A DNA stretch of 64,000 nt. Source: an uncultured Candidatus Saccharibacteria bacterium (GTDB lineage: Bacteria; Patescibacteriota; Doudnabacteria; UBA920). Of this stretch, positions 18,458 through 46,958 are shown in pieces. How positions within the stretch are numbered: the first letter of the stretch is position 1; every line of letters starts with the position of its first letter. The translations under genes were made by a program, and so were the position numbers. Location: the NCBI GenBank assembly GCA_964556325.1, contig CAZKVS010000001.1, positions 67,133 through 131,132 on the forward strand, given 5' to 3'. Below the pieces are notes generated by a model that was given only the letters and a program-made list of their open reading frames with translations, was not told the origin of the DNA and ran no database searches.

Positions 18458-19345
18458 TTATTCTGTTCTGTCTGCTCGCTTACCGTGTACGACAGTTTTT
18501 TTAATGGGTGGTAAATGAGTAGGGCCGTAGTCAGACATAACTACACCCGCGGGATTGTGCTCAAGGCTAATGGCTCTTGGCTGTTGAAACGCGCCGTTTA
18601 CTAATAGCTTATTTATATAATGAAAGGCTGCATCTGCATGCTCTACCAGATGGTACAATTGCGTGTCTTCTGGAGCAATTGCTTGGTGTTCTTTCAAAAC
18701 TACTTTGTCAATCCACTTTAAGAGAGGTTGCCAGAAGTCTTTGTCTATAAGCACGACATACACACCGCTCATTTTTTTCGTTTGAATGAGTGTCAGAATT
18801 TCAAAAAGTTCGTCAAGCGTACCAAAGCCGCCCGGGAAAAATATGTATATTTGGGAAACTGAGGCAAGCATTACTTTGCGGGTAAAAAAGTAGTGGAACG
18901 ATTCGCTTTCGCTGACGTATCGGTTTATGCGTTGCTCTGAGGGGAGTTGTATATTTAAACCAACCGATTTACCTCCGGCCTCTTTTGCGCCTTTGTTGCC
19001 GGCTTCCATTATACCCGGTCCGCCGCCTGTGACGACTGCAAAGCCCTCTTTGGCCAGTAAGTAGCCAAGTCGTTGTGCGTCCCGGTACACCGAGTGTTCC
19101 GCGCCCCAGCGAGCAGAGCCAAAAAAGCTTACCGCATGTTCGAATTGGTTTATAAACCTGTACCCGGCCATAAACTCAGAGACAATGCGCCAAAGTCGCC
19201 CAGGAGAAAATAAGTTTTCCCGGACTGTCATGAGTTTGTCTACTTGTCGTTTAGTCAGCTGCCCGTTGTGAATAGTTATCTTTTTCCTGTTTTGCTTTTC
19301 GGGTAGGACGATGTGGATCTTTTTATGTGGGTGTTTGTCTGTCAT
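18458..19345 (-). CDS. LOG-family protein (cytokinin riboside 5'-monophosphate phosphoribohydrolase-like)
   Basis: [27 protein letters not shown] and [12 protein letters not shown] motifs. The N-terminal extension is longer than usual. Confidence 0.75.
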
Positions 19346-21945: not shown

Positions 21946-22509
21946 TTGTTTATTTCATGTTTTGGAAGCGGAAGTGGCCAGCCGGGGGAGCTGGTATATG
22001 ATGCCATGTTGAGCGTGGGGCGTCTGCTAGCGCAAAGGCGTCACACCGTGGTTACCGGTGGATTTGGCGGCTCGGGCATGCAAGCACCAGCGCAGGGAGC
22101 AAAAGAAGCGGGCGGTGAATCTGTTGGCCACACGCTTTTGGGTCTTCCGCCAAACCAGTTCCTAACTCGTTTCTTCGATTACGGAGTTATGTTTCGTTCG
22201 CCTGAGCTGCAATTTGGCACTCGTCTTGGGCGCATGCTCGAGAGCGATGGTTTTATCATCGGCGCGGGTGGCGGGCCTGGTACTGCCGTCGAATTTTTCT
22301 CCATCGTCAATATGGCCTATAAAGGCTTTTCTAACAATCCACAAAAGCGATGCGCAATTTTGTGGCCCAGCGGGGCGAACGTCCCAGGTTGGGATAACGC
22401 TATGTTGGAACAACTAACGAAGTGGGGCCTTTTTCCTGCAGAGGCTCGAAAATACATCAAGGTATGCACAACGCCTGAAGAGGCGGTTGTCTGGGCTTGC
22501 GGTGAGTAG
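21946..22509 (+). CDS. LOG/TIGR00730-family Rossmann-fold protein (second, divergent paralogue)
   Basis: GGFGGSGMQAPAQGAKEAGGESVG and GAGGGPGTAVEF motifs. Confidence 0.55.
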   Translation: MFISCFGSGSGQPGELVYDAMLSVGRLLAQRRHTVVTGGFGGSGMQAPAQGAKEAGGESVGHTLLGLPPNQFLTRFFDYGVMFRSPELQFGTRLGRMLESDGFIIGAGGGPGTAVEFFSIVNMAYKGFSNNPQKRCAILWPSGANVPGWDNAMLEQLTKWGLFPAEARKYIKVCTTPEEAVVWACGE

Positions 22510-30092: not shown

Positions 30093-30161
30093 ACTAGCTC
30101 TAGTATATCAAATAAAAATACCATGACTCTTTCAGGAGCCATGGTATTTGGATGCATATAC

Positions 30162-30968
30162 CTATTGATTTGTCTGTGTGCTGGTAGTGGCAGAGGCTTT
30201 TACTTTTACATTTTTGAGTGCTTTTACAATGGTGCCTGCATCCTTTCGAGCAGTTTGTAAGTCTTGTGTTGCGAGCTTTATTTTTGCCCGTGCGTCTTTC
30301 AGGGCTGCTTGATTGGACTGGAATACTGTCTGGTCACCGTTATCGGGTTGTAGGTTTGCAATCAAGGTAATCGCTGCGTTGGCTTGCACTGTGGCGTCGG
30401 CAGTTTTTGCGTTCATGTCTACTAGACTTGCATTCATCGCGGTGACATCCTGTCCTGCAGTTTGTGCAGCGGTAATGCGAGTTTGCAGCTTCGCGCTTAA
30501 GTCGTTCATGAGTCCGACGGTGGTTATAATTCTATCCGCTGCCGCAGTAATACGGCCTTGAGGAAGAACGAGTAAATAAATGCGATAAGACTTGGTTATA
30601 GATTGTATATCAGCTTTTAAAGTTGTGCCGTCGGTATCCGCATCAATTTTTGCCTTGAGCGCATTCATCTCACTTATAGCTGCTTGTAGCGTGGCGGTTA
30701 GACTGGCTTTTTGGTTGGTAGAGACTCGTTGCATTTCGTTTATGCGGGTAGAAAGTGCAGTGAGGGCTTTTACGCGTGCGTTTATTTGCGCATCGGCTTT
30801 GGTCCGACCGGCGGTGTCTAGTCGGATGCTCATGCCCGTTGTTTTACCATCGGTCATGGTGTTGGCTTTTAGGTCATCGCGCATGAGCGCTGCAGATGCA
30901 GGGAGTGTGGATGCGCCAATGATGGCCGCGGCGGCAAGAGACGTGCCAAGTAGTTTTGAGAGTTTCAT
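30162..30968 (-). CDS. Secreted Ala/Thr-rich coiled-coil protein
   Basis: Signal peptide. Long helical Ala/Thr/Gln-rich repeats. Confidence 0.45.
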   Translation of the reverse strand: MKLSKLLGTSLAAAAIIGASTLPASAALMRDDLKANTMTDGKTTGMSIRLDTAGRTKADAQINARVKALTALSTRINEMQRVSTNQKASLTATLQAAISEMNALKAKIDADTDGTTLKADIQSITKSYRIYLLVLPQGRITAAADRIITTVGLMNDLSAKLQTRITAAQTAGQDVTAMNASLVDMNAKTADATVQANAAITLIANLQPDNGDQTVFQSNQAALKDARAKIKLATQDLQTARKDAGTIVKALKNVKVKASATTSTQTNQ

Positions 30969-30984
30969 ATAAGTAGAGGATTAA

Positions 30985-31284
30985 TTATTTAGCAGGTGCT
31001 TGCTGCTCATTGAGGCTAGAGTCTATGCTGGCTGAGTCGTTGCTGAGTCCGGCCATGTTGGTGTCTACTGCCTTGAGCGATGCATCTAAGTCTGCATTGG
31101 TGTTGGCACTGGCTGCGTTTGGTGTAGTTTGAGTTTGCGGAGGTACTTCGGTGGGAGTTACTGCAGTAGGTAACTGCGATGTGGTTGGAGGGGTGTCATC
31201 TACAGGAGTGTTTACAGTAGTCTGACTACTGCATCCTGCTGCGAGGAGGGTAATGAGACCCACAGCAAAAAAGACTTTTTTCAT
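30985..31284 (-). CDS. Lipoprotein (Pro/Thr-rich)
   Basis: MKKVFFAVGLITLLAAGCSS signal with an LAAGC lipobox. Confidence 0.5.
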   Translation of the reverse strand: MKKVFFAVGLITLLAAGCSSQTTVNTPVDDTPPTTSQLPTAVTPTEVPPQTQTTPNAASANTNADLDASLKAVDTNMAGLSNDSASIDSSLNEQQAPAK

Positions 31285-31372
31285 AATGTATTTCGTTTAA
31301 TAATCTGCTTCAGCGGACCCGCTGAATATATACCATAGTATACAACGCCCACATGAAGGGGCTGTTACACGG

Positions 31373-31861
31373 CTATAGGTTCACTATATACTGGGGTACA
31401 ATATGCGTGTTTTTGTATTTTTGCTGTAACCCAACAGGAAGCTTGGAAAAGTTTCTAATTATTTTTCTGCAGGTAGCCGCACCGCAGTTGCAGCGCATGG
31501 TCCATATGTCGTCGCTTGCGGTAATGGTGGAATAGTCTATTAACACTTCTGCACCCTTGGGTAGGTGGGTAATTGTATACACAAAAAGTTTCTGTCCATT
31601 TTTTACAACTTTCGCGTTTGGCTCACAGGAATGGTTTAAGTACACGCCTATATGCCCTTCAGGGCTGAGATAATAGTTTTCAGATATACGAAAGCAGTTG
31701 TCTAAAAAAGTACCCCCTCGCTCAAGTAGGGTAGTATAGTGTTTGCGCACGCCAAGGATAGCAAAAACAATCTGTTCAGGTTTAATATCGTGCGTAGTAA
31801 ATATGCCTTGACCGTTGCGGGTATGTGCAACAGTAAGACCTTTATAATGCGTGTCTTGCAT
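31373..31861 (-). CDS. SET-domain protein lysine methyltransferase-like
   Basis: NHSCEPN motif, ELxxDY-type motif (EVLIDY) and a post-SET Cys cluster (CNCGAATCRK). Confidence 0.7.
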   Translation of the reverse strand: MQDTHYKGLTVAHTRNGQGIFTTHDIKPEQIVFAILGVRKHYTTLLERGGTFLDNCFRISENYYLSPEGHIGVYLNHSCEPNAKVVKNGQKLFVYTITHLPKGAEVLIDYSTITASDDIWTMRCNCGAATCRKIIRNFSKLPVGLQQKYKNTHIVPQYIVNL

Positions 31862-31864
31862 GGT

Positions 31865-32416
31865 TTAGTTTTCTATAGCATGAAAAGCAGAGAGTAACTC
31901 TGGAAAAGTAGTATACCCTGCATCCGTATTTAAGTGGCCGCCGTTGTGTATGACTGTAGGCGCCACATCGAGTTTGGCAGCTAGGTCGGCGAGTACGTCT
32001 TGAGGTACATAGGGATCATTGTTCCCGTAAAAGACAAAAGACTTTCCCACTTTTTGCCGGACTTTTATAAAATCTATTACACGCTCACGCATAAAGTAAC
32101 TATTGAGCTCAGCACCATAGTCTTTGCCAAAACCCGCAACCGAAACTAAAGCACGCACATCGGTAGGTGAGTGTTCAATAAAGTCTAAGGCAGTAACCAC
32201 CCCCAACGAGTGGCCAACTAGCACTAGTTGGTCGGTTGGTGTATTGACTACCACGCGCTGCGTAGTAGAAAGCCATGTTGCTCTATCAGGGTGTTCAGCG
32301 TCCGGTAAGTTGGGCATGAGTACCGTGTGGCCTTGGCTCGTAAGTTGGTCGTGTAGCCACTGTTCCCAGTGCGCACCCGCGTGGCTGCCTATAGCGTGGA
32401 GTATTAAAACAGTCAT
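31865..32416 (-). CDS. Serine hydrolase of the YdeN/RBBP9 alpha/beta-hydrolase family
   Basis: MTVLILHAIGSHAGAHW ... VGHSLG nucleophile elbow. Confidence 0.55.
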   Translation of the reverse strand: MTVLILHAIGSHAGAHWEQWLHDQLTSQGHTVLMPNLPDAEHPDRATWLSTTQRVVVNTPTDQLVLVGHSLGVVTALDFIEHSPTDVRALVSVAGFGKDYGAELNSYFMRERVIDFIKVRQKVGKSFVFYGNNDPYVPQDVLADLAAKLDVAPTVIHNGGHLNTDAGYTTFPELLSAFHAIEN

Positions 32417-34200: not shown

Positions 34201-35235
34201 ATGAGCAGATTATTTCAAAAACATGTACAGGTACGGTTGGTTTCCTACTCGCTGTTAGTTGTAGCGGTTATAGTTGGTTTTGTGTTGGCCGGATATTTTT
34301 ACTATAAGAGCGAGCAGGGCGACATTCCTATGTTTACCAGAATCCGCGCGGACCGGCAGGACTTAAAATACACCAACCCACTCATAGCTTCAGATTTAAT
34401 AGATAAAAAACAGCTAACCGAGTATAAACCTTTGGAGAAAAAAGTTGCAGACTACATACATCAAGTTAAAACGTCCGGCACTGCCAAAGATGTAGGCGTG
34501 TACTATCGGGAGTTTACCAGTGGTGCGTGGACTGGAGTAAACGAAGACGCCTTGTTTGCGCCGGGAAGCTTGCAAAAAGTGCCGCTCATGGTGGCGTACT
34601 ATAAAATTGCAGAAACAGCCCCAGCAATTTTAAACGATAAACTTCCCAACACCATGCAGGGCGATGCAAATACAGCCCAAGCAGTTAAGCCTGCCAAAAC
34701 CATAGAGTACGGCCAGGAAGCCTCGGTATTGGATTTGCTCAAGCTCATGATTGGTTATTCCGACAACAACGCAACTAACGTGTTGTTCAATCATTTAGAT
34801 CAAGATTCCCTCAAAGAAGTTTTTTCCGATTTAAATCTCGTCTTCAATGACCCATCAGCACACACCAATTCTATTTCCCCAAAACAGTACAGCTTGTTTT
34901 TCCGGGTACTCTATAATGCCTCGTACTTAAGTTGGGCGTACTCTGAGCAGGCTTTAAGCTTGCTTACTCAAAGCGACTTTAAAGACGGACTAGCCGCGGG
35001 TGTGCCTCAAGGTGTGGAGGTGGCGCACAAGTTTGGCGAGAGCTATAACCAAGCGGAAATAAAAAACGGCATTACCCCTCTTGAGCAGTTTCATGACTGT
35101 GGGGTGGTGTATTACCCTAATCACCCATATATTTTATGCGTCATGACTAGGGGAGAAGGATTACAGCCACTTGCGAAAGTTATCCAAGACATTTCTCGTC
35201 TCGTCTACCAAGACGCCGAAAGCCGGTATCACTAA
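34201..35235 (+). CDS. Class A beta-lactamase-fold serine hydrolase-like protein
   Basis: N-terminal TM, SLQK (SxxK), YSDNNATN (SDN). The KTG box is replaced by HKFG. Confidence 0.5.
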   Translation: MSRLFQKHVQVRLVSYSLLVVAVIVGFVLAGYFYYKSEQGDIPMFTRIRADRQDLKYTNPLIASDLIDKKQLTEYKPLEKKVADYIHQVKTSGTAKDVGVYYREFTSGAWTGVNEDALFAPGSLQKVPLMVAYYKIAETAPAILNDKLPNTMQGDANTAQAVKPAKTIEYGQEASVLDLLKLMIGYSDNNATNVLFNHLDQDSLKEVFSDLNLVFNDPSAHTNSISPKQYSLFFRVLYNASYLSWAYSEQALSLLTQSDFKDGLAAGVPQGVEVAHKFGESYNQAEIKNGITPLEQFHDCGVVYYPNHPYILCVMTRGEGLQPLAKVIQDISRLVYQDAESRYH

Positions 35236-35450: not shown

Positions 35451-35693
35451 ATGTACCATACGTATATTTTGGAGAACCCTGAAGGTCGGTTATATATTGG
35501 TCAAACTGATAATGTTGGGAATAGGCTATTGCGGCATAATTCTAACATGGTAAAATCAACAAAGAATAAGGGGCCTTGGAAGCTAATATATAGTCGCGAG
35601 TTTGTCGCTCGGAGTGAGTCGGTAGCGTTCGAAACTTATTTAAAATCTCTAAAAAGTTCGAAGTACATTAAATCTTATATAGTTGGTTCTTAA
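35451..35693 (+). CDS. GIY-YIG nuclease family protein (UPF0213/YhbQ-like)
   Basis: YILENPEGRLYIGQTDNVGNRLLRHN ... PWKLIYSREF ... E. The start codon directly follows repeat R. Confidence 0.7.
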   Translation: MYHTYILENPEGRLYIGQTDNVGNRLLRHNSNMVKSTKNKGPWKLIYSREFVARSESVAFETYLKSLKSSKYIKSYIVGS

Positions 35694-36121: not shown

Positions 36122-37009
36122 ATGCATATTTTAGTTATTACCGGGGGTTCGTCTTCCGAACGGAAAATTTCTTTGCTTTCGGCAAAGGGGGTTAAGGGCG
36201 CGTTAGTTGCCAACGGGCACGCGGTAACTATGTTTGATTTTAAACGGGGGTATGACCAACTACGGAGTGCGCTTGAGAAGTGTGATATGGTTTTTCCGGT
36301 CATGCACGGCAAAGAAGGGGAGGACGGCACGTTGTATAAGTTTCTCCGCTCTGCTAAAAAGCCGTACGTAGGCTCAGAGCCAAAGGGGGCAAGGGTTGCG
36401 TTTGATAAAATTCTATTTAAAAAGTATTGCGACGCCAAAGGCATTCTTACTGCGCCATGGAAGGTTGTTAAAACCAGAGAAGATATTACTCGGTTTGGGT
36501 TGCCGTGTGTGTTGAAGGCTACCTATGGAGGCTCTTCGCACGAAGTGGCGCTCTTGCACACTGAAAAAGACCTTGCGAGTATTCGCGTTAAAAAAATACT
36601 TGCACTACCGTGCCGCTGGTATGTAGAGAGGCTACTGCAGGGCGTTGAAATTACCGTTGGGGTTCTGAACGGCAAGGCGTTACCGGTAATAGAAATTGTA
36701 CCGCCAAGTGCCGGTTGGTTTGACTATAAAAGTAAGTATTCAGGTGAGTCCCAGGAAATTCCTTTTGCACCGTCGGTAAGTAGTAAAGTTCAAAAACAGG
36801 CGCAAGCTCTCGCACTACGCATACACAAAGACCTTCGCCTAGGTAGTTATTCCCGAACAGACTTTATTGTACAAAATAGTAAGTTGTACATCCTGGAAAC
36901 CAACACCCCCGGCGGTGTCGGGCTTACTTCCGAGAGCCTGCTCCCAAAAGCTGCCAAGGCCATGGGAATGAGCTTTGAAAAACTTATTCAGCAAATGTTA
37001 AAGCAATAA
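36122..37009 (+). CDS. ddl: D-alanine--D-alanine ligase
   Basis: MHILVITGGSSSERKISLLSAKGV N-terminus, ATP-grasp core, C-terminal LYILETNTPGGVG. Confidence 0.85.
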   Translation: MHILVITGGSSSERKISLLSAKGVKGALVANGHAVTMFDFKRGYDQLRSALEKCDMVFPVMHGKEGEDGTLYKFLRSAKKPYVGSEPKGARVAFDKILFKKYCDAKGILTAPWKVVKTREDITRFGLPCVLKATYGGSSHEVALLHTEKDLASIRVKKILALPCRWYVERLLQGVEITVGVLNGKALPVIEIVPPSAGWFDYKSKYSGESQEIPFAPSVSSKVQKQAQALALRIHKDLRLGSYSRTDFIVQNSKLYILETNTPGGVGLTSESLLPKAAKAMGMSFEKLIQQMLKQ

Positions 37010-38380: not shown

Positions 38381-40024
38381 ATGGACGAAATAAAAATACG
38401 AGAAATATTGCTAAAAGAAGACTATGTTTCCGCAGCCGATTTAAAAACTGCCGAGGAGTATGCTAAAAGTCATAAGACCACTTTACTCGATGGTCTTCTG
38501 TCTTTGCAGTTAATTACCAAAGATTTACTGCACCAAGCAATTGCCGAGTTTTTGGGCATGGCTTTTATAGACTTGACTGCAAAGCCGCCGGATAAAAAAG
38601 ATATACTCAGTATTCCGAAAGCTTTGGCGGAAAAAGAAAAAATAATTTTGTACAAGCAAACTTCCAAAGAGGCTACCATCGTTTCTGGTGGGGTTGTGTC
38701 TCCCGAAGCCTTGGCAGAACTGCAGAACCTTTTTGTAAATAAAAAAATAAGTGTTGTCTACGCTGATCCAGAAGCAATTGCACTCGCGATGATGCAGTAT
38801 CGGCCGGCACTTGAAACTCGATTTGGCGAAATTATCAAAGCCGGTGGAAAGGTTGCTCCGGAAATAATCGATCAAATTCTAGACGACGCACTTGCTTTGC
38901 GTGCGTCCGATATCCACTGCGAGCCGCAAGGTGCTGACGTACTTATTCGTTTTAGGATTGACGGAGTATTGCATGAAGCTGGACGAGTACCGAAAGAACA
39001 TTACGAAAACATTGTGAACCGGATTAAGGTGCAGGCCAAGCTGAGAATTGATGAACACTTGGCGAGTCAAGACGGTGCTATCCATTTTAGTGGCACACAT
39101 CATCAGGCAGACCTGCGGGTTTCAATTGTACCCACACTAGACGGTGAAAAAGTGGTTATTCGGGTTTTGGCAGAGTATGTTCGAGACTTTTCTCTCACAG
39201 ATATAGGGTTATCGGCGGAGGATCAACAAACGGTTGTGGAGGCCGCTCATAAACCGTTTGGTATGGTATTGGTGACTGGTCCTACTGGCAGCGGAAAGAC
39301 TACTACGTTATATTCCTTAGTCAAACTGTTAAACGACACGCAAGTTAACATAACCACTATTGAAGACCCGGTTGAGTATAAAATTACCGGCATAAACCAA
39401 ATTCAGGTAAATACTGTAAGCAATTTAACTTTTGCCAAAGGTCTGAGGGCAATAGCCAGGCAAGACCCCAATATTATTTTGGTGGGTGAAATCCGAGATT
39501 TAGAAACGGCGGATATAGCGGTCAACGCAGCGTTAACTGGTCACTTATTACTTTCCACTTTTCACGCCAACGACTCTGCTGCTGTAATGCCAAGGCTTTT
39601 AAACATGGGCATTGAGCCATTTTTACTTTCATCGACTCTGGAATTGATAGTGGCCCAGCGCTTGGTAAGGAAGATATGTGAAAGTTGTCGGTTCACTCAG
39701 AGCGTTACTCTGGACGACATTATAAAGTTGCTGCCACGTGCGAAAGAATATTTTTCAGAAAGTTCCGTAACGCTCTATAACGGTAAAGGGTGTGGTGCGT
39801 GCTCTCAGACTGGCTATAAAGGTCGTTTGGGTTTGTTCGAGTTTTTAAAAGTCACGCCAGAAATGTCCGACTTAATTTTGGCTAACCCTTCGAGTAAACA
39901 AATTTGGCAATTAGCAAAATCCCAAGGCTGTCGAAGTTTGTTTGAAGATGGTATACAAAAAGTTAAAGCGGGACACACGACGTTGGAAGAGTTATTGAGA
40001 GTGGTAAAACCTAAAGATTTATAA
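38381..40024 (+). CDS. pilB: Type IV pilus assembly ATPase PilB (GspE family)
   Basis: N-terminal GSPII_E_N repeats, Walker A VLVTGPTGSGKTTTLYS, Asp/His boxes, C-terminal tetra-Cys (CESC...CGAC). Confidence 0.9.
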   Translation: MDEIKIREILLKEDYVSAADLKTAEEYAKSHKTTLLDGLLSLQLITKDLLHQAIAEFLGMAFIDLTAKPPDKKDILSIPKALAEKEKIILYKQTSKEATIVSGGVVSPEALAELQNLFVNKKISVVYADPEAIALAMMQYRPALETRFGEIIKAGGKVAPEIIDQILDDALALRASDIHCEPQGADVLIRFRIDGVLHEAGRVPKEHYENIVNRIKVQAKLRIDEHLASQDGAIHFSGTHHQADLRVSIVPTLDGEKVVIRVLAEYVRDFSLTDIGLSAEDQQTVVEAAHKPFGMVLVTGPTGSGKTTTLYSLVKLLNDTQVNITTIEDPVEYKITGINQIQVNTVSNLTFAKGLRAIARQDPNIILVGEIRDLETADIAVNAALTGHLLLSTFHANDSAAVMPRLLNMGIEPFLLSSTLELIVAQRLVRKICESCRFTQSVTLDDIIKLLPRAKEYFSESSVTLYNGKGCGACSQTGYKGRLGLFEFLKVTPEMSDLILANPSSKQIWQLAKSQGCRSLFEDGIQKVKAGHTTLEELLRVVKPKDL

Positions 40025-40025
40025 C

Positions 40026-41162
40026 ATGCCTCAGGTAAAAATTCGTAAACGTCAGATTGAAGAAGACTATGAAGCACAACCGCCTTTTGCGTTTCATTCG
40101 GGCTGGCCGTACTTTACTGTTGGCTTTGGTGACGAGATAGACTACTTTGTGGAGAATTTGAGCATTATGATAGCTTCGGGTATGGGTGTAACCGCGGCTT
40201 TGGCTGGCATTAAAGTCGGTACTAAAAACCGGAGTTTAAAAAAGAACATAGCAGTCATAGAACAAATGATTGCCGATGGTTTTCCGCTTTGGAAAGCCTT
40301 TGAGCGCACTCAATTTTTACCCTCTCGAATAATTGCCTTAGTAAAATCGGGTGAAGAATCGGGTCGTTTACCTGAGCACCTCAATTTAGTTACTATCCAA
40401 CAGCATAAAGAACGAATTTTTGTTTCCCGTATACGCTCCGCATTGCTGTATCCGGGTATTGTGCTCGCGTTGGCCTTTGTGGTTGCGGTGGGCAGCGCGT
40501 GGGTCACGCTCCCACGGCTAATTACAGTTTTTAATGAAATTCACACGAGTTTGCCACCCACCACTAGAATGATTATTTGGTTGGGGAATTTTTTGGCCCA
40601 CTACGGCAGTTTCGCAGTTCCCCTCACTCTGTTCGGGGCTGGAGTACTCGTATATGCAATATTTTTTTATACTAAAACTAAAATTGTAGGGGAGTATATT
40701 ATATTATTTTTACCGGGAATAAATAAGCTCATCCAAGGTGTAGAGTTGGCGCGCTTTGGCTATATATTTGGCGCCTTGCTTTCTGCGGGTATTCACATAG
40801 AGGAAGCCATGAGTTCCGTTCGTGAGGGGACTAGCTTTGTATCGTATAGAAAATTCTACGTATTTTTGCAAGACGGCATAAGCCAAGGCAATTCATTTAG
40901 TACCATCTTTGCCGGATATGCACACTCAGATCGCTATATTCCGGCGCCTATGCAAAAACTTATTATTGCTGCTGAGCAAAGTGGTAAATTGCCGGAGACC
41001 TTACTAAAAATTGGCCAAATTTTTGAAGAAAAAACTGAAACCATGAGTCAGGATTTATCTACTATTTTAGAGCCAATAGTTTTAATTGTTGTAGGAATTT
41101 TTGTAGGCTTTATTGTATTAGGTTTAATTAGCCCAATATATGGACTTTCAAGCCAGATATAA
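40026..41162 (+). CDS. pilC: Type IV pilus platform protein PilC (GspF family)
   Basis: Two T2SSF-like repeats and three TM segments. Confidence 0.85.
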   Translation: MPQVKIRKRQIEEDYEAQPPFAFHSGWPYFTVGFGDEIDYFVENLSIMIASGMGVTAALAGIKVGTKNRSLKKNIAVIEQMIADGFPLWKAFERTQFLPSRIIALVKSGEESGRLPEHLNLVTIQQHKERIFVSRIRSALLYPGIVLALAFVVAVGSAWVTLPRLITVFNEIHTSLPPTTRMIIWLGNFLAHYGSFAVPLTLFGAGVLVYAIFFYTKTKIVGEYIILFLPGINKLIQGVELARFGYIFGALLSAGIHIEEAMSSVREGTSFVSYRKFYVFLQDGISQGNSFSTIFAGYAHSDRYIPAPMQKLIIAAEQSGKLPETLLKIGQIFEEKTETMSQDLSTILEPIVLIVVGIFVGFIVLGLISPIYGLSSQI

Positions 41163-41589
41163 CACGCAGGGTTTTAGTCTTATCGAAGTTATGGTTGTGG
41201 TCGGGCTTTTAGCGTTGTTCGCTGGAGCTGTTGGGCCCGTGTACCGAACAGTACAAACCAAGACAAATTTAGATATTGCTGTTGCGGGGGTAGCTTCAGC
41301 GTACAGGCGGGCACAGGCAGCGTCTCAGTCGGGCAACGCTGATGCTAATTGGGGAGTAAAATTTTTTACGACTCATACTGTTGTATTTGCGGGGAACAGT
41401 TATGCAGTAAGGCAAGCTTCCTATGACGAAAAACTAGATTTCCCGGATGACACAACTGTTTCTGGAAATACTGAAGTTGTGTTTACTAAATTTACCGGAT
41501 TACCACAAGCTACTGGAACTACAACAGTAACGAACTCTTTTGGCAGTAAAAACCTCATTGTAAATGCACAAGGAACTGTTACGTACTAA
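41140..41589 (+). CDS. Type IV pilin-like protein (prepilin N-terminal methylation domain)
   Basis: Leader MDFQARYNTQG then FSLIEVMVVVGLLALFAG (G|F, with E5). Confidence 0.7.
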   Translation: MDFQARYNTQGFSLIEVMVVVGLLALFAGAVGPVYRTVQTKTNLDIAVAGVASAYRRAQAASQSGNADANWGVKFFTTHTVVFAGNSYAVRQASYDEKLDFPDDTTVSGNTEVVFTKFTGLPQATGTTTVTNSFGSKNLIVNAQGTVTY

Positions 41590-43747
41590 AAAAGAAACTG
41601 GTTTTTCTGTGGCCGAGGTGGTTATTGCCGCGGCCGTGTTGACTATTTTCATTACGGGGATTACTTCTGCTTTGGTTGCTCTGGGCAGAAATATTAACTC
41701 CTCTGGCCACAAAGCACAAGCAGTGTTGTTGGCTGAAGAAGCCTTGGAAGGCTCGCGTAACATTCGCGACGCGGCTTTTTCTAATCTTATTGACGGAACA
41801 TATGGTATGGCCACGGCTAGTAACCAGTGGAACTTTTCCGGCAGCTCAGATGTAAACGGCATTTATACAAGGCAAACAACTGTTTCTACAGTCAGCGCCA
41901 ACCAAAAACAAATATCATCCACCGTTTCTTGGCGACACGGTGCAGCGTTAAACCGCAGTGTTACTGTATCAACGTACCTAACTAACTGGCTTACGAGCCT
42001 GGCAAGGGGAGGATTATTAGCCTATGGTAATGGCGGCACAACGCTCGACAGTATTTTTTATCGTGTACTAAATAACACCGGTAATTGGTCAGCTGCAGCC
42101 CAAGCAGCAGATATAGATGCTGGTACGAGTAATCGGGCTTTGCGTGCTGTGAGGGTTTACGCGTCGGCTACTCGAAATGAAAAAGTCTTAATTTCCCGAC
42201 ATTACAACGGGACTACTCAATACGTGTACGCGCAAGTGTATAACGGCTCCAGTTGGGGTAATGTGCAATTGCTTTCAAGCTGGACAGCCGGAACTTTTCT
42301 AGATGTGCAAAATTTTGACGGCACATATTTAGCAAATGGCAGTTTCATGGTAATTTTTTCTGATAATACAATTATTCCTAAAATGAGAACCTGGAATGGG
42401 TCTGTGTGGTCTGCTCAAAGCTCTCTCACTACCTTAGGCGCCGGCGCTATACCAAACTATGTAGTGGCTAAAGCTCGTTCGGGTAGCAATGAAGTAATGG
42501 CGGCATTTTTTACACAAAATTCTAGAACAATTAGTGAATATTATAACGGTAGCGCCTGGTCGGCAATTACATCACATGCGGCAGCTGCGCCGGTTAATAC
42601 AACTAGGTTTGTAGATTTTGCCTGGAGTCCAAACAATGCTTTAAAAGGCGGTTTGGTATATTCCACCGGAGCTGCCGACAGGGCTTTGCATATAAAAATT
42701 TGGACAGCGAATGGTTTGGGTAGTGGGAGTTGGAGTGCTGTAGCCAATACTGCGAATCAAGGAGTTGGGTCAACGAGGCTGGGGGCAGTGTCTATTGTGG
42801 GTCGGCCGGGAGCAGATGAATTTATTGCCTGTAACAAAAATACCAGCCTGCAAATTATCTGCTACAAAAGTACTTTTACCCCTACGTGGACTAACCCAAC
42901 TAACCAAAGCCTAACCGCGACCACCAATGCAGGAATACAGCGTCCATTTCATATGGGTTTTGAATCGGTGTCCGGTGACCCCGCTATTGGCGTTTATTCC
43001 GACGCGACTGCTACGCCAAAACTAAAAAAGTATACAGCTTCAAGCTCCACGTGGGACGCTTCCGCTACCAGCTTAAATACTTTATTAGCTTCTTTAGCTT
43101 CGGTAAAAGTAATACCCGCTCCAACCACCAATGATATTTTGGTGTTGCTTGGAGACACAAATGCAGATCTCTATTCCACTATTTGGGATGGAACCAATAA
43201 TGTAATATATTCGCCACCCTTGGGAAATACTTCCATAGAAAGTAACTTGGATTCCAATACAGTTGGGAGAGCTGAAAGCTTTTTTGCTACTGCTACTGCC
43301 AGTGGCACTATAAATAGTATCAGTGTGTTCCTTGAATCAACTTCTACATCAACAAATTTAGTAGCTGGATTATATACAAACTCTGGGGGGAGCCCAGGAA
43401 CCCTGCTCTCACAAGGGAGTAGCTCTACTTTGATAAATGGAGCATGGAACACTATTGCTATTCCTTCAGTTACTCTAACTTCCGGTACAAGTTATTGGAT
43501 ATCTATTTTAGGCACGGCTGGCGGAGTTCCTAGATTTAGGGACAGAAGCGGGGGCCCTTGTAATAGTGAAACAAGTGCCTCTACAACGTTAACTTCATTG
43601 CCGGCATCCTGGACCACTGGCACTGTATTTACGACTTGTCCTTTGTCAGCTTATGTCAGTGGGAATGGTAATTCTTTTACACCTCACGGTATCAGTGGCT
43701 CCGCTACTACTGATTATTGGTACGATTTTGCTTGGGACGTATTTTAG
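41564..43747 (+). CDS. Giant pilin-like protein (prepilin N-terminus + ~690 aa Ser/Thr/Gly/Asn-rich beta-rich domain)
   Basis: Leader ...KKETG then FSVAEVVIAAAVLTIF. The rest is low in charge and rich in S/T/G/N/W, like an adhesin. Confidence 0.65.
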   Translation: MHKELLRTKKETGFSVAEVVIAAAVLTIFITGITSALVALGRNINSSGHKAQAVLLAEEALEGSRNIRDAAFSNLIDGTYGMATASNQWNFSGSSDVNGIYTRQTTVSTVSANQKQISSTVSWRHGAALNRSVTVSTYLTNWLTSLARGGLLAYGNGGTTLDSIFYRVLNNTGNWSAAAQAADIDAGTSNRALRAVRVYASATRNEKVLISRHYNGTTQYVYAQVYNGSSWGNVQLLSSWTAGTFLDVQNFDGTYLANGSFMVIFSDNTIIPKMRTWNGSVWSAQSSLTTLGAGAIPNYVVAKARSGSNEVMAAFFTQNSRTISEYYNGSAWSAITSHAAAAPVNTTRFVDFAWSPNNALKGGLVYSTGAADRALHIKIWTANGLGSGSWSAVANTANQGVGSTRLGAVSIVGRPGADEFIACNKNTSLQIICYKSTFTPTWTNPTNQSLTATTNAGIQRPFHMGFESVSGDPAIGVYSDATATPKLKKYTASSSTWDASATSLNTLLASLASVKVIPAPTTNDILVLLGDTNADLYSTIWDGTNNVIYSPPLGNTSIESNLDSNTVGRAESFFATATASGTINSISVFLESTSTSTNLVAGLYTNSGGSPGTLLSQGSSSTLINGAWNTIAIPSVTLTSGTSYWISILGTAGGVPRFRDRSGGPCNSETSASTTLTSLPASWTTGTVFTTCPLSAYVSGNGNSFTPHGISGSATTDYWYDFAWDVF

Positions 43748-44699: not shown

Positions 44700-46958
44700 A
44701 TGAAACAATTCCCTAAAAAAATATTTACCACCACCGTCCGAGAATCGGAACTAGTTGCCCAAGGTGTTAAGAAGCTCACTCTGCAACCAGCTGAGGATTT
44801 CTCCTTTACTCCCGGGCAATATGTGTGGGTGGAAATTCCTACACTTAAAATTGGTGATCCTGCGGGTAACAGAAAAGCATTTTCTATTTGCAGTCTTCCA
44901 AACTCTCAAAACACTTTTTCGGTTGTAGCCAGAGAAAGTGCAAGCGGTTTTAAAAAAGCGTGGTTTGCGCTGAGCCCCGGGGATACGGTAATAACTCATG
45001 GTCCATTTGGTTCAAGCTTTGGTATACATGAGCACTTTCCAAAGAATATAGTTATGATTGCCGGAGGGGTGGGCGTCGCGCCTTTCTTGCCAGTCATTGA
45101 GCTAATACAAAAACGGGCCTTACCCATACGGTGTATTCTTATCTATCTTGACAAAACAGAAGAATCTACCCCGTTTCTCTCTGAACTTGAGCAGCTACAA
45201 AATACAAACAGTTTTTTTGAATATCGTGCAGTGTATGACTATTTTTCATGGGGGTATATAAAAACTAAGTACGAAAATCTAACAGGCGCTACTGAGTGGT
45301 GGGTGTCTGGTTCACAGAAGATGGTTGAGTATGTGTATGCCGAGTTGTCAAAAGGTGGGGTGGCGCGGGAACACATGGTTTTTGAAAATTATTACCCAAG
45401 TTCAAAAGACAACTTAAACATAGAGCAGGTGAGAGAGCAAATGCAGAAAGAGGGTTTACTTACCCAGGCCATACAAAACTCCACTAACCATACAATAATT
45501 ACCGACTCCAACGGTATTGTGTTGTTTGCAAACAAAGCTGCTGAAAAAATAACTGGTTATTCGCAGGCCGAAATTTTGGGGAATACCCCCCGGTTGTGGG
45601 GCGGTATGATGGATCCGGCTTTTTATAAAGATTTTTGGCAGAAAAAGAGGTCCGGCCAGTCGTTTGAAGGTGAGATGACTAATCGTCGAAAAAACGGCGA
45701 GCTGTATCATACCATAGCCCACATTGCGCCAATTTTCGGAACAAGCAAAGAGATTATTGGTTTTATTGGCACCGAAGAAGATGTCACCAGTCTAAAGAAA
45801 CAGGAAGAAAAAATACTTCAGGATAAATTAAAAGATGAAGCTATTTTAAGTAGCATTGGAGAAAGCGTTATAGCAACCGACAATACGGGTAAGGTTGTGT
45901 TTGCAAACCAAACTGCTCTAGACTTGTTTGAGCAGCCTGAAGAAATAGTATTTAATAAAAAAATTTGGGACATTCTTATTTTAGTCGATGCTAAGGGAGG
46001 GTTAATTACAGAAGCGAGTCGTCCTATGAAGTTGGCATTAACTACAGGAAAGAAGATTATAACTTCTGAGTATTGTTTTTACAACGAAAACAACAAAAAG
46101 AAAATTGTAGTGGCTATTACTGCGACTCCTGTAATTTTAGATGGCTCTATTATTGGAGCAATAGAAATTATCCGCGATATTACAAAAGAAAAAGAAATAG
46201 ATCAAGCCAAAACTGAATTTGTCTCTCTAGCTAGTCACCAACTGCGTACGCCGCTTTCGGCAATAAATTGGTATACAGAAATGCTCCTTGCCGGAGACGC
46301 AGGAAAACTAAATGATGAGCAGGAGAAATATCTTAAAGAGGTGTACACAGGTAATCAACGCATGGTGGAATTGGTTAACGCACTGCTAAATGTGTCTCGC
46401 TTAGATTTGGGAACCTTTGTCATTGAACCAAAGCCGACTGATGTTTTAGCGTTGGCAAAAAGCGTACTTGGCGAATTGCAGCCGCTCATTACGCAAAAGC
46501 AATTAACTGTTACAGAACATTTTAGTCAAGGCATTCCCCAGTTCAATGCAGATGAAAAATTACTTCGCATGGTGTTCCAAAACTTGTTGTCTAACTCTGT
46601 AAAATACACCTTACTTAAAGGTTCTGTAACGGCTGACGTTACCGTGGTATCTAAAGATGAAATGTTTGGTGGTAAAAAAGTTGCGGTGGACAGCTTGGCT
46701 ATTTGTGTATCCGATTCCGGTATGGGCATTCCCACTGCGCAGCACGCTAAAATTTTCTCAAAGTTATTTCGAGCCGACAATGCTATGGAAACAGAGGCTG
46801 AGGGCACGGGGCTAGGTTTGTATATTGTAAAATCAATCGTTGACCAGTCAGGTGGAAAGATTTGGTTTAAGTCGGAACAAGATAAAGGAACTGAATTTTA
46901 TGTATTATTTCCCATAACTGGTATGAAGTCAAAAGATGGTTTAAAGAAGCTTGAATAA
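44700..46958 (+). CDS. Hybrid sensor histidine kinase with an N-terminal FNR-like FAD/NAD(P)H-binding oxidoreductase domain, PAS repeats, HisKA and HATPase
   Basis: RKAFSICS (RxYS-type FAD motif), MIAGGVGVAPFLP (GGxGxxP NAD motif), two PAS segments, H-box LASHQLRTPLSAI, G-boxes DSGMGI and GTGLGL. Confidence 0.75.
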   Translation: MKQFPKKIFTTTVRESELVAQGVKKLTLQPAEDFSFTPGQYVWVEIPTLKIGDPAGNRKAFSICSLPNSQNTFSVVARESASGFKKAWFALSPGDTVITHGPFGSSFGIHEHFPKNIVMIAGGVGVAPFLPVIELIQKRALPIRCILIYLDKTEESTPFLSELEQLQNTNSFFEYRAVYDYFSWGYIKTKYENLTGATEWWVSGSQKMVEYVYAELSKGGVAREHMVFENYYPSSKDNLNIEQVREQMQKEGLLTQAIQNSTNHTIITDSNGIVLFANKAAEKITGYSQAEILGNTPRLWGGMMDPAFYKDFWQKKRSGQSFEGEMTNRRKNGELYHTIAHIAPIFGTSKEIIGFIGTEEDVTSLKKQEEKILQDKLKDEAILSSIGESVIATDNTGKVVFANQTALDLFEQPEEIVFNKKIWDILILVDAKGGLITEASRPMKLALTTGKKIITSEYCFYNENNKKKIVVAITATPVILDGSIIGAIEIIRDITKEKEIDQAKTEFVSLASHQLRTPLSAINWYTEMLLAGDAGKLNDEQEKYLKEVYTGNQRMVELVNALLNVSRLDLGTFVIEPKPTDVLALAKSVLGELQPLITQKQLTVTEHFSQGIPQFNADEKLLRMVFQNLLSNSVKYTLLKGSVTADVTVVSKDEMFGGKKVAVDSLAICVSDSGMGIPTAQHAKIFSKLFRADNAMETEAEGTGLGLYIVKSIVDQSGGKIWFKSEQDKGTEFYVLFPITGMKSKDGLKKLE

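Follow-up and report, generated by a model that had tools for sequence, protein, structure and literature searches.

Bacterial SET-domain proteins are usually discussed as effectors that act on host chromatin. Other stand-alone SET proteins of prokaryotes have been described as well: cpnSET from Chlamydophila pneumoniae methylates the nucleoid proteins Hc1 and Hc2, and Go1-SET from Methanosarcina mazei methylates MC1-alpha (PMC3980110). The small bacterial SET enzyme BurB methylates free methionine, and the paper describing it makes no mention of zinc or cysteine (Cys) (PMC12542666). The gene considered here lies at positions 31373..31861 (minus strand) of a 64,000-nucleotide stretch, hereafter the window, from an uncultured Candidatus Saccharibacteria bacterium of the GTDB lineage Doudnabacteria (contig CAZKVS010000001.1, positions 67,133 to 131,132). 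Judging by its sequence, the gene almost certainly encodes a functional methyltransferase of the SET fold that carries a post-SET zinc site. The gene is, as it stands, an ordinary and readily recognised member of its domain family, and it has been clear for years that environmental bacteria can have SET genes; a first-pass annotation of this DNA, which called SET proteins rare among bacteria, is thus outdated on this point, since a 2014 review already listed many environmental bacteria carrying them (PMC3980110).

The gene is an intact open reading frame with an ATG start, encoding 162 residues followed by a stop codon. The Pfam SET model (PF00856) matches the protein over its entire length (model positions 1-105 of 105) with 46.4 bits (E=5.8e-12), above the curated cut-off of 22.4 bits, so that the search proposed by the first-pass annotation gives a significant result, and SET is the only Pfam domain found; a search of NCBIfam with the same protein matched no named family. 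Among PDB sequences, the top phmmer match is the SET domain of KMT2A/MLL1 (E=5e-9), in an alignment that extends through the post-SET CxCx4C, and a profile built from 73 family sequences reaches MLL1 at E=2e-25 and BurB at 7e-14. The alignment of this profile to MLL1 starts at residues 3-8, the window protein itself beginning at the SET-N strand. As far as sequence can tell, this match to the SET domain is far beyond chance, and together with the predicted structure described below it bears out the earlier identification of a bacterial SET-domain methyltransferase with a post-SET Cys cluster. A database search returned 79 homologues, each about 160 aa long, of which the nearest is 91% identical and equally long, and the ratio of nonsynonymous to synonymous substitution rates (dN/dS) against four relatives is 0.11-0.18, which indicates purifying selection on the gene. 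A recent horizontal acquisition was considered and rejected, since the GC content (42.1%) and the GC content at third codon positions (42.9%) are inside the range of the other genes of the window, and the copies from the Candidate Phyla Radiation (CPR) group together in a neighbour-joining tree. A scan for canonical promoters and terminators beside the gene gave nothing above chance. The features of the gene are the following:

31373..31861, minus strand: complete gene for a SET-domain methyltransferase (open reading frame call, Pfam SET, homologues, dN/dS and AlphaFold2 model)
31805..31813, minus strand: SET-N GxG motif G17-Q18-G19, the predicted loop binding S-adenosylmethionine (SAM), aligned to HGRGLF of MLL1
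31616..31636, minus strand: NHSCEPN pseudoknot motif, N76-N82, aligned to NHSCEPN of MLL1
31532..31549, minus strand: EVLIDY motif, E105-Y110, with the invariant D109 and the putative catalytic Tyr110
31493..31531, minus strand: family-specific loop STITASDDIWTMR, residues 111-123, leading from Tyr110 to the post-SET and conserved across phyla
31463..31492, minus strand: predicted post-SET zinc cluster CNCGAATC, C124-N-C126-GAAT-C131-R-K133 (CxCx4C), aligned residue for residue with CNCGAKKCRK of MLL1
31376..31462, minus strand: C-terminal extension, residues 134-162, with helices 143-151 and 157-161, recognised by conservation and by the predicted local distance difference test (pLDDT) of the model

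The hallmark motifs quoted in the first-pass annotation (NHSCEPN, EVLIDY and CNCGAATCRK) are all found in the translation when mapped from the raw sequence. In the alignment of 73 homologues, from which all conservation figures given here are taken, the invariant positions are G37, N76, H77, C79, P81, D109, C124, C126, C131, R132 and Y149, while G17, G19 (72 of 73 sequences each), P67, S78, N82, E105, Y110, T112, D117, D118, M122 and G127 are conserved in at least 90%. The zinc ligands predicted from these sequences are C124, C126 and C131 of the post-SET, with C79 of NHSCEPN as the probable fourth, and all of them are invariant (73/73). The window protein thus carries the CxCx4C plus NHSC Cys that characterises the SUV39, SET1/MLL, SET2/NSD and ASH1 classes.

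The active site is less canonical, in the sense that one of the usual tyrosines is kept and two are replaced. Position 110 is Tyr in 66 homologues and Trp in the remaining 7; position 108 is I, F or H, never Tyr, and Ile in the window protein; position 35 is V or I across the family. The conservation of the catalytic tyrosines, whose loss the first-pass annotation regarded as a reason for doubt, therefore holds for Y110 and fails at the second position, occupied by Ile35. We take Y110 to be the counterpart of MLL1 Y3944, Ile108 that of the Phe/Tyr-switch Y3942, and Ile35 that of MLL1 Y3858 and SET7/9 Y245 (MLL1 residues being counted back from its C-terminus). Between Tyr110 and the zinc cluster, the segment S-T-I-x-x-x-D-D-I-W-T-M-R hardly varies between phyla: T112, D117, D118 and M122 are among the conserved positions listed above, W120 is Trp in 65 of the homologues, and the string DDIWTMRC is near-identical in CPR, Gemmatimonadota, Planctomycetota and Proteobacteria. 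By analogy with BurB, whose Met-binding residues V130 and M132 sit at the corresponding position, this loop is likely to form the substrate-binding wall. As for the C-terminal extension, Y149 is accompanied by the conserved pairs L141-P142, V155-P156 and Y158-I159, and the whole element recurs in archaeal, fused and tandem members of the family, whereas MLL1 ends at the post-SET.

An AlphaFold2 model computed on the family alignment (pLDDT 95, predicted template modelling score 0.90) has the SET beta-fold with its pseudoknot, and the C-terminal extension is modelled with a pLDDT of 94-97. When this model is used as a Foldseek query, MLL4, MLL3, MLL1 and ASH1L rank first, and BurB is structurally almost as close as the protein-lysine methyltransferases.

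The nearest genomic relatives are metagenome-assembled genomes of Candidatus Doudnabacteria, in which the SET protein is 70% identical, four flanking genes are 58-84% identical and the upstream hydrolase is 83% identical; in those of Saccharibacteria the SET identity is 61%, and labelled genome matches at 35-47% identity come from Gemmatimonadaceae, Burkholderiales, Planctomycetota, Chitinophaga and Gammaproteobacteria. When 1.84 billion representative proteins were searched with the profile, 399 clusters, defined at 50% identity, were recovered at E<=1e-30, and in the neighbour-joining tree (without bootstrap) the CPR copies fall together and other phyla form clades of their own. The module of about 155 aa is also found in archaea, kinetoplastids and large viral contigs. 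The latter are IMG/VR contigs of 120-406 kb (L043-L064) whose proteins are 31-40% identical, C-terminal extension included; one of these very large contigs is labelled GVMAG, so that they probably belong to giant viruses. The module is frequently repeated: 39 of the 150 best representatives are tandem two-module proteins, some with a degenerate second copy (in P0102, for example, DES replaces DYS in the second module). A Mesostigma viride protein has six matched stretches, and the "SET domain containing" proteins of Trypanosoma brucei (XP_827306.1, 1449 aa) and Leishmania (1479 aa) are built from roughly eight modules in a row, intact and degenerate ones alternating (kinetoplastid and Mesostigma clusters P0082, P0086 and P0099). 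The subfamily appears to be uncharacterised, and within the literature library that was searched no paper linking SET domains with CPR or Patescibacteria was found.

What, then, does this enzyme methylate? With moderate confidence, we favour a cytoplasmic SAM-dependent enzyme that methylates a lysine within an endogenous protein, probably a basic and conserved one, and that is likely to act as a dimer. This preference comes from the fact that its closest relatives are protein-lysine methyltransferases and that prokaryotic SET enzymes act on endogenous nucleoid proteins; the fusions of family members to GIY-YIG and DUF2063, domains with links to DNA, were counted in its favour. In mechanistic terms, the protein would be a small methyltransferase of the cytoplasm with the SET (class V) fold, which binds zinc and has SAM as cofactor. 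SAM would be bound on one face, by the GxG motif and the NH of NHSC, and the target amine would enter the channel of the opposite face, lined by Tyr110, the DDIW loop and the C-terminal helices with the invariant Tyr149, the methyl group being transferred through an SN2 attack. The substrate would most likely be the epsilon-amino group of a lysine in an own protein. If it is lysine, the pocket should have room for the addition of several methyl groups, because both Phe/Tyr-switch positions lack a Tyr (Ile108; Val85/Val86). That the residues on the substrate side are strictly conserved from phylum to phylum suggests a conserved and probably basic target, for example a nucleic-acid-binding or translation-associated protein, and the frequency of tandem two-module versions suggests that the working unit is probably a dimer.

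Several observations weigh against this assignment. Where MLL1 has Y3858 and many lysine methyltransferases likewise have Tyr, this family has Val or Ile, two family members are fused to polyamine- or hypusine-type enzymes, and neighbourhoods are not conserved outside the immediate clade, so that context yields no target; a candidate nucleoid-protein gene linked to the SET gene of the window was not found either. Furthermore, the roles given to Tyr149 and the DDIW loop are inferred.

Some of these points lead to the main rival, a rather unlikely alternative in which a free primary amine or thioether (homospermidine, spermidine, free lysine, ornithine or methionine) would occupy the SET pocket of a small-molecule methyltransferase like BurB, a precedent for such chemistry (PMC12542666) whose structural closeness was mentioned above. 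Nevertheless, the similarity to lysine methyltransferases is much stronger in sequence (2e-25 versus 7e-14), and neither in the window nor in relatives is the gene flanked by polyamine genes or by bur-type partners (a pyridoxal phosphate-dependent decarboxylase, an aminotransferase or an aldehyde dehydrogenase). The polyamine-type fusions deserve a closer look. In one of them, on a TARA ocean contig with 33% GC (L042:969-2986), a full-length deoxyhypusine synthase is fused to a SET module, and a stand-alone SET gene comes next; the LSM and ribosomal protein L37e neighbours identify the contig as archaeal. In the other (P0102/P0228), a saccharopine-dehydrogenase/homospermidine-synthase-like domain is fused to two SET modules. 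However, these are two singletons among 72 multi-domain representatives, and deoxyhypusine synthase acts on a protein lysine, so that this fusion fits a protein substrate equally well. The census of fusions as a whole (GIY-YIG, DUF2063, HEAT, CxxCxxCC, TM1506, an unassigned multi-pass membrane domain, deoxyhypusine synthase and the saccharopine-dehydrogenase/homospermidine-synthase-like domain) was rejected as a "Rosetta stone", given that every partner is a singleton among those 72 and no consistent signal emerges.

The same two fusions, the archaeal one with deoxyhypusine synthase and the one with a homospermidine-synthase-like domain, are the reason for considering a broader possibility, to which we give only limited credence: the module of about 155 aa (SET, post-SET zinc and the Tyr149 helix pair) might constitute an ancient subfamily with one universal non-histone target, either an EF-P/IF5A-type translation factor or a polyamine-type amine. 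If this were true, the CPR protein would be a non-chromatin, possibly small-molecule, N-methyltransferase with relatives that are repeated eight times in single trypanosomatid proteins.

Far less probable than any methylation of the cell's own components is an exported effector that would methylate chromatin or nucleoid proteins of a host cell, as do Chlamydia NUE, Legionella RomA/LegAS4 and Bacillus anthracis BaSET. The first-pass annotation had hinted at host chromatin manipulation by a putative episymbiont. CPR bacteria are often episymbionts, and with Doudnabacteria and Saccharibacteria as nearest relatives the lifestyle is a reasonable guess that would fit an effector; the hosts known for this group, however, are prokaryotic and have no histones. 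Most of the bacterial SET proteins characterised so far are effectors (PMC3980110), and two further observations would fit one, namely the type IV pilus-like genes of the window and the exported proteins encoded next to the SET gene. These are a 99-aa lipoprotein with the lipobox LAAGC (30985..31284, minus strand) and a 268-aa protein with a Sec-type N-terminus (30162..30968, minus strand), neither of which is matched by Pfam. The secreted and lipoprotein genes (30162..31284) reported beside the SET gene therefore do carry export signals, yet they sit in a block of about 1.27 kb (window positions ~30115-31386) that is missing from all syntenic relatives, where a PGAP1-like hydrolase gene directly follows SET; a contig at 84% nucleotide identity has no counterpart of it, its flanks being only 77 bp apart. 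This context was consequently rejected as a conserved feature, being specific to the window. The SET protein, for its part, lacks a signal peptide, as first noted, and also a lipobox and a hydrophobic N-terminus: its maximum Kyte-Doolittle value over 15 residues within the first 40 is 0.71, compared with 2.42 and 1.75 for the two neighbours. No type III or type IV secretion system genes were found within the 64-kb window, only the type IV pilus-like T2SSE/F. In short, every defining feature of an effector is missing from the protein; there is no evidence that it is exported or directed at a host, and the hint is not supported, considering the absent signal peptide, the window-specific neighbours, the close family members in free-living phyla and archaea, and the variation of gene neighbourhoods from lineage to lineage.

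Hardly credible, finally, is a catalytically inactive SET-fold module for binding or scaffolding, which the aliphatic residue at the MLL1 Y3858-equivalent position and the clearly degenerate repeats of tandem and eightfold members (such as the second module of P0102) might suggest, given that single-module proteins, the window protein included, have every motif for SAM binding and catalysis and every zinc ligand in intact and invariant form, and that purifying selection is strong.

Regarding the neighbourhood, the gene that precedes SET is the following:

31865..32416, minus strand: alpha/beta hydrolase of the Ser_hydrolase family (PF06821, Pfam E=7.3e-24)

Only 3 nt separate its stop from the start of SET, which makes co-transcription and translational coupling probable. 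In a comparison in which the open reading frames of 23 genome loci were clustered and 12 annotated contexts were read, relatives with a SET identity of 69% or more preserve this adjacency and its 3-nt gap, and more distant ones do not, so that the hydrolase is an operon mate at the level of the clade rather than a defining partner. All relatives at or above 69% identity share the order beta-lactamase-family, (Peptidase_S51), small membrane protein, (HAD), Ser_hydrolase PF06821 and SET, followed by PGAP1-like hydrolase, YecM, FMN_bind-like, ApbE, 2',5'-RNA-ligase-like, CYTH and glyoxalase. Distant family members have dissimilar neighbours (a SPOUT methyltransferase; a FAD oxidase with ribosomal protein L25; a class I methyltransferase; DUF1697; other unrelated genes). 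Conserved neighbours were thus rejected as a functional guide, with synteny restricted to at least 69% identity and just a loose link to small GIY-YIG genes beyond it. An origin in a defence system or a phage was rejected too: PADLOC matched no defence system in SET and five neighbours, and the sole PHROGs match among SET and its neighbours was insignificant (E=0.009).

As for the GIY-YIG genes, the window has a stand-alone one of 80 aa at a distance of 3.6 kb from SET (35451..35693, plus strand), Saccharibacteria-type contigs (L007, L041) have one two genes downstream of it, and in clusters P0056, P0061, P0062 and P0091 the domain precedes the SET module as an N-terminal fusion. A functional link between GIY-YIG and SET is possible but weak.

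Relatives also carry HD, Peptidase_S51 and HAD genes that the window lacks; among genomes that are about 84% identical, this region is a hotspot where genes are gained and lost. In the 88-bp gap before the lipoprotein gene, 47 nt 3' of the SET stop, there is a perfect inverted repeat, TTCAGCGG-AC-CCGCTGAA (31309..31326), which has no T-run after it and was not flagged by the terminator scan. Two beta-lactamase-family genes (PF00144 and PF13354; 32693..33775, minus strand, and 34201..35235, plus strand) lie no more than 1.5 kb apart near the SET operon, and a D-Ala-D-Ala ligase gene (Ddl) is found at 36122..37009. Further away, a type IV pilus/type II secretion ATPase (T2SSE) and a platform protein (T2SSF) are encoded at 38381..41162 (plus strand), followed by an open reading frame of 727 aa without a Pfam match (41564..43747, plus strand) and a PAS histidine kinase (44700..46958); this region is typical of CPR attachment or uptake machinery. 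There are two genes of the LOG/SLOG family ("possible lysine decarboxylase", PF03641/PF18306) at 18458..19345 (minus strand) and 21946..22509 (plus strand), and a homologue is located 3 kb downstream of SET in a Saccharibacteria contig (L038). MreB, MraW and PBP genes and a single tRNA complete the picture of the window.

The presence of the subfamily, in about 400 clusters, in CPR, free-living phyla, archaea, kinetoplastids and viral contigs, together with the lack of export features in the window protein, supports the existence of housekeeping SET substrates in prokaryotes. Finding the substrate, be it a protein or a small amine, would widen the known repertoire of SET enzymes and would also show what a gene retained by the genome-reduced CPR bacteria is for.

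How does the protein compare, then, with the systems described so far? By sequence and by structure, it is nearest to the SET1/MLL (KMT2) H3K4 methyltransferases (human MLL1, PDB 2w5y/7u5v; yeast Set1, 6ven). Unlike them, it is a bare module of 162 aa without N-SET/WIN or partner-binding (WRAD/COMPASS) parts, it has Ile at the positions of the switch Tyr3942 and of Tyr3858, it adds a 29-residue C-terminal extension with the invariant Tyr149, and it belongs to a prokaryote, which has no histone H3. It is the nearest neighbour of the SET1/MLL orthologous group and not a member of it. BurB, the methionine S-methyltransferase of Burkholderia thailandensis (PDB 9l4t; PMC12542666), is more distant in sequence, and its gene belongs to the bur/DMSP (dimethylsulfoniopropionate; malleicyprol) cluster with the decarboxylase BurI, BurD and BurE, with nothing comparable at this locus or in relatives. 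The window protein is closer to lysine methyltransferases than to BurB, and the four-Cys site that is invariant in its family may set BurB apart, going by the description in that paper. The secreted SET nucleomodulins (NUE, RomA/LegAS4, BaSET and BtSET from Burkholderia) have secretion signals, nuclear localization signals or ankyrin domains and eukaryotic hosts, whereas the window protein has no classical export signal, nuclear localization signal or ankyrin domain, and its family is spread over free-living phyla. The functional model that we favour, likened by description, is that of cpnSET and Go1-SET, stand-alone prokaryotic SET proteins that act on DNA-associated substrates of the cell.
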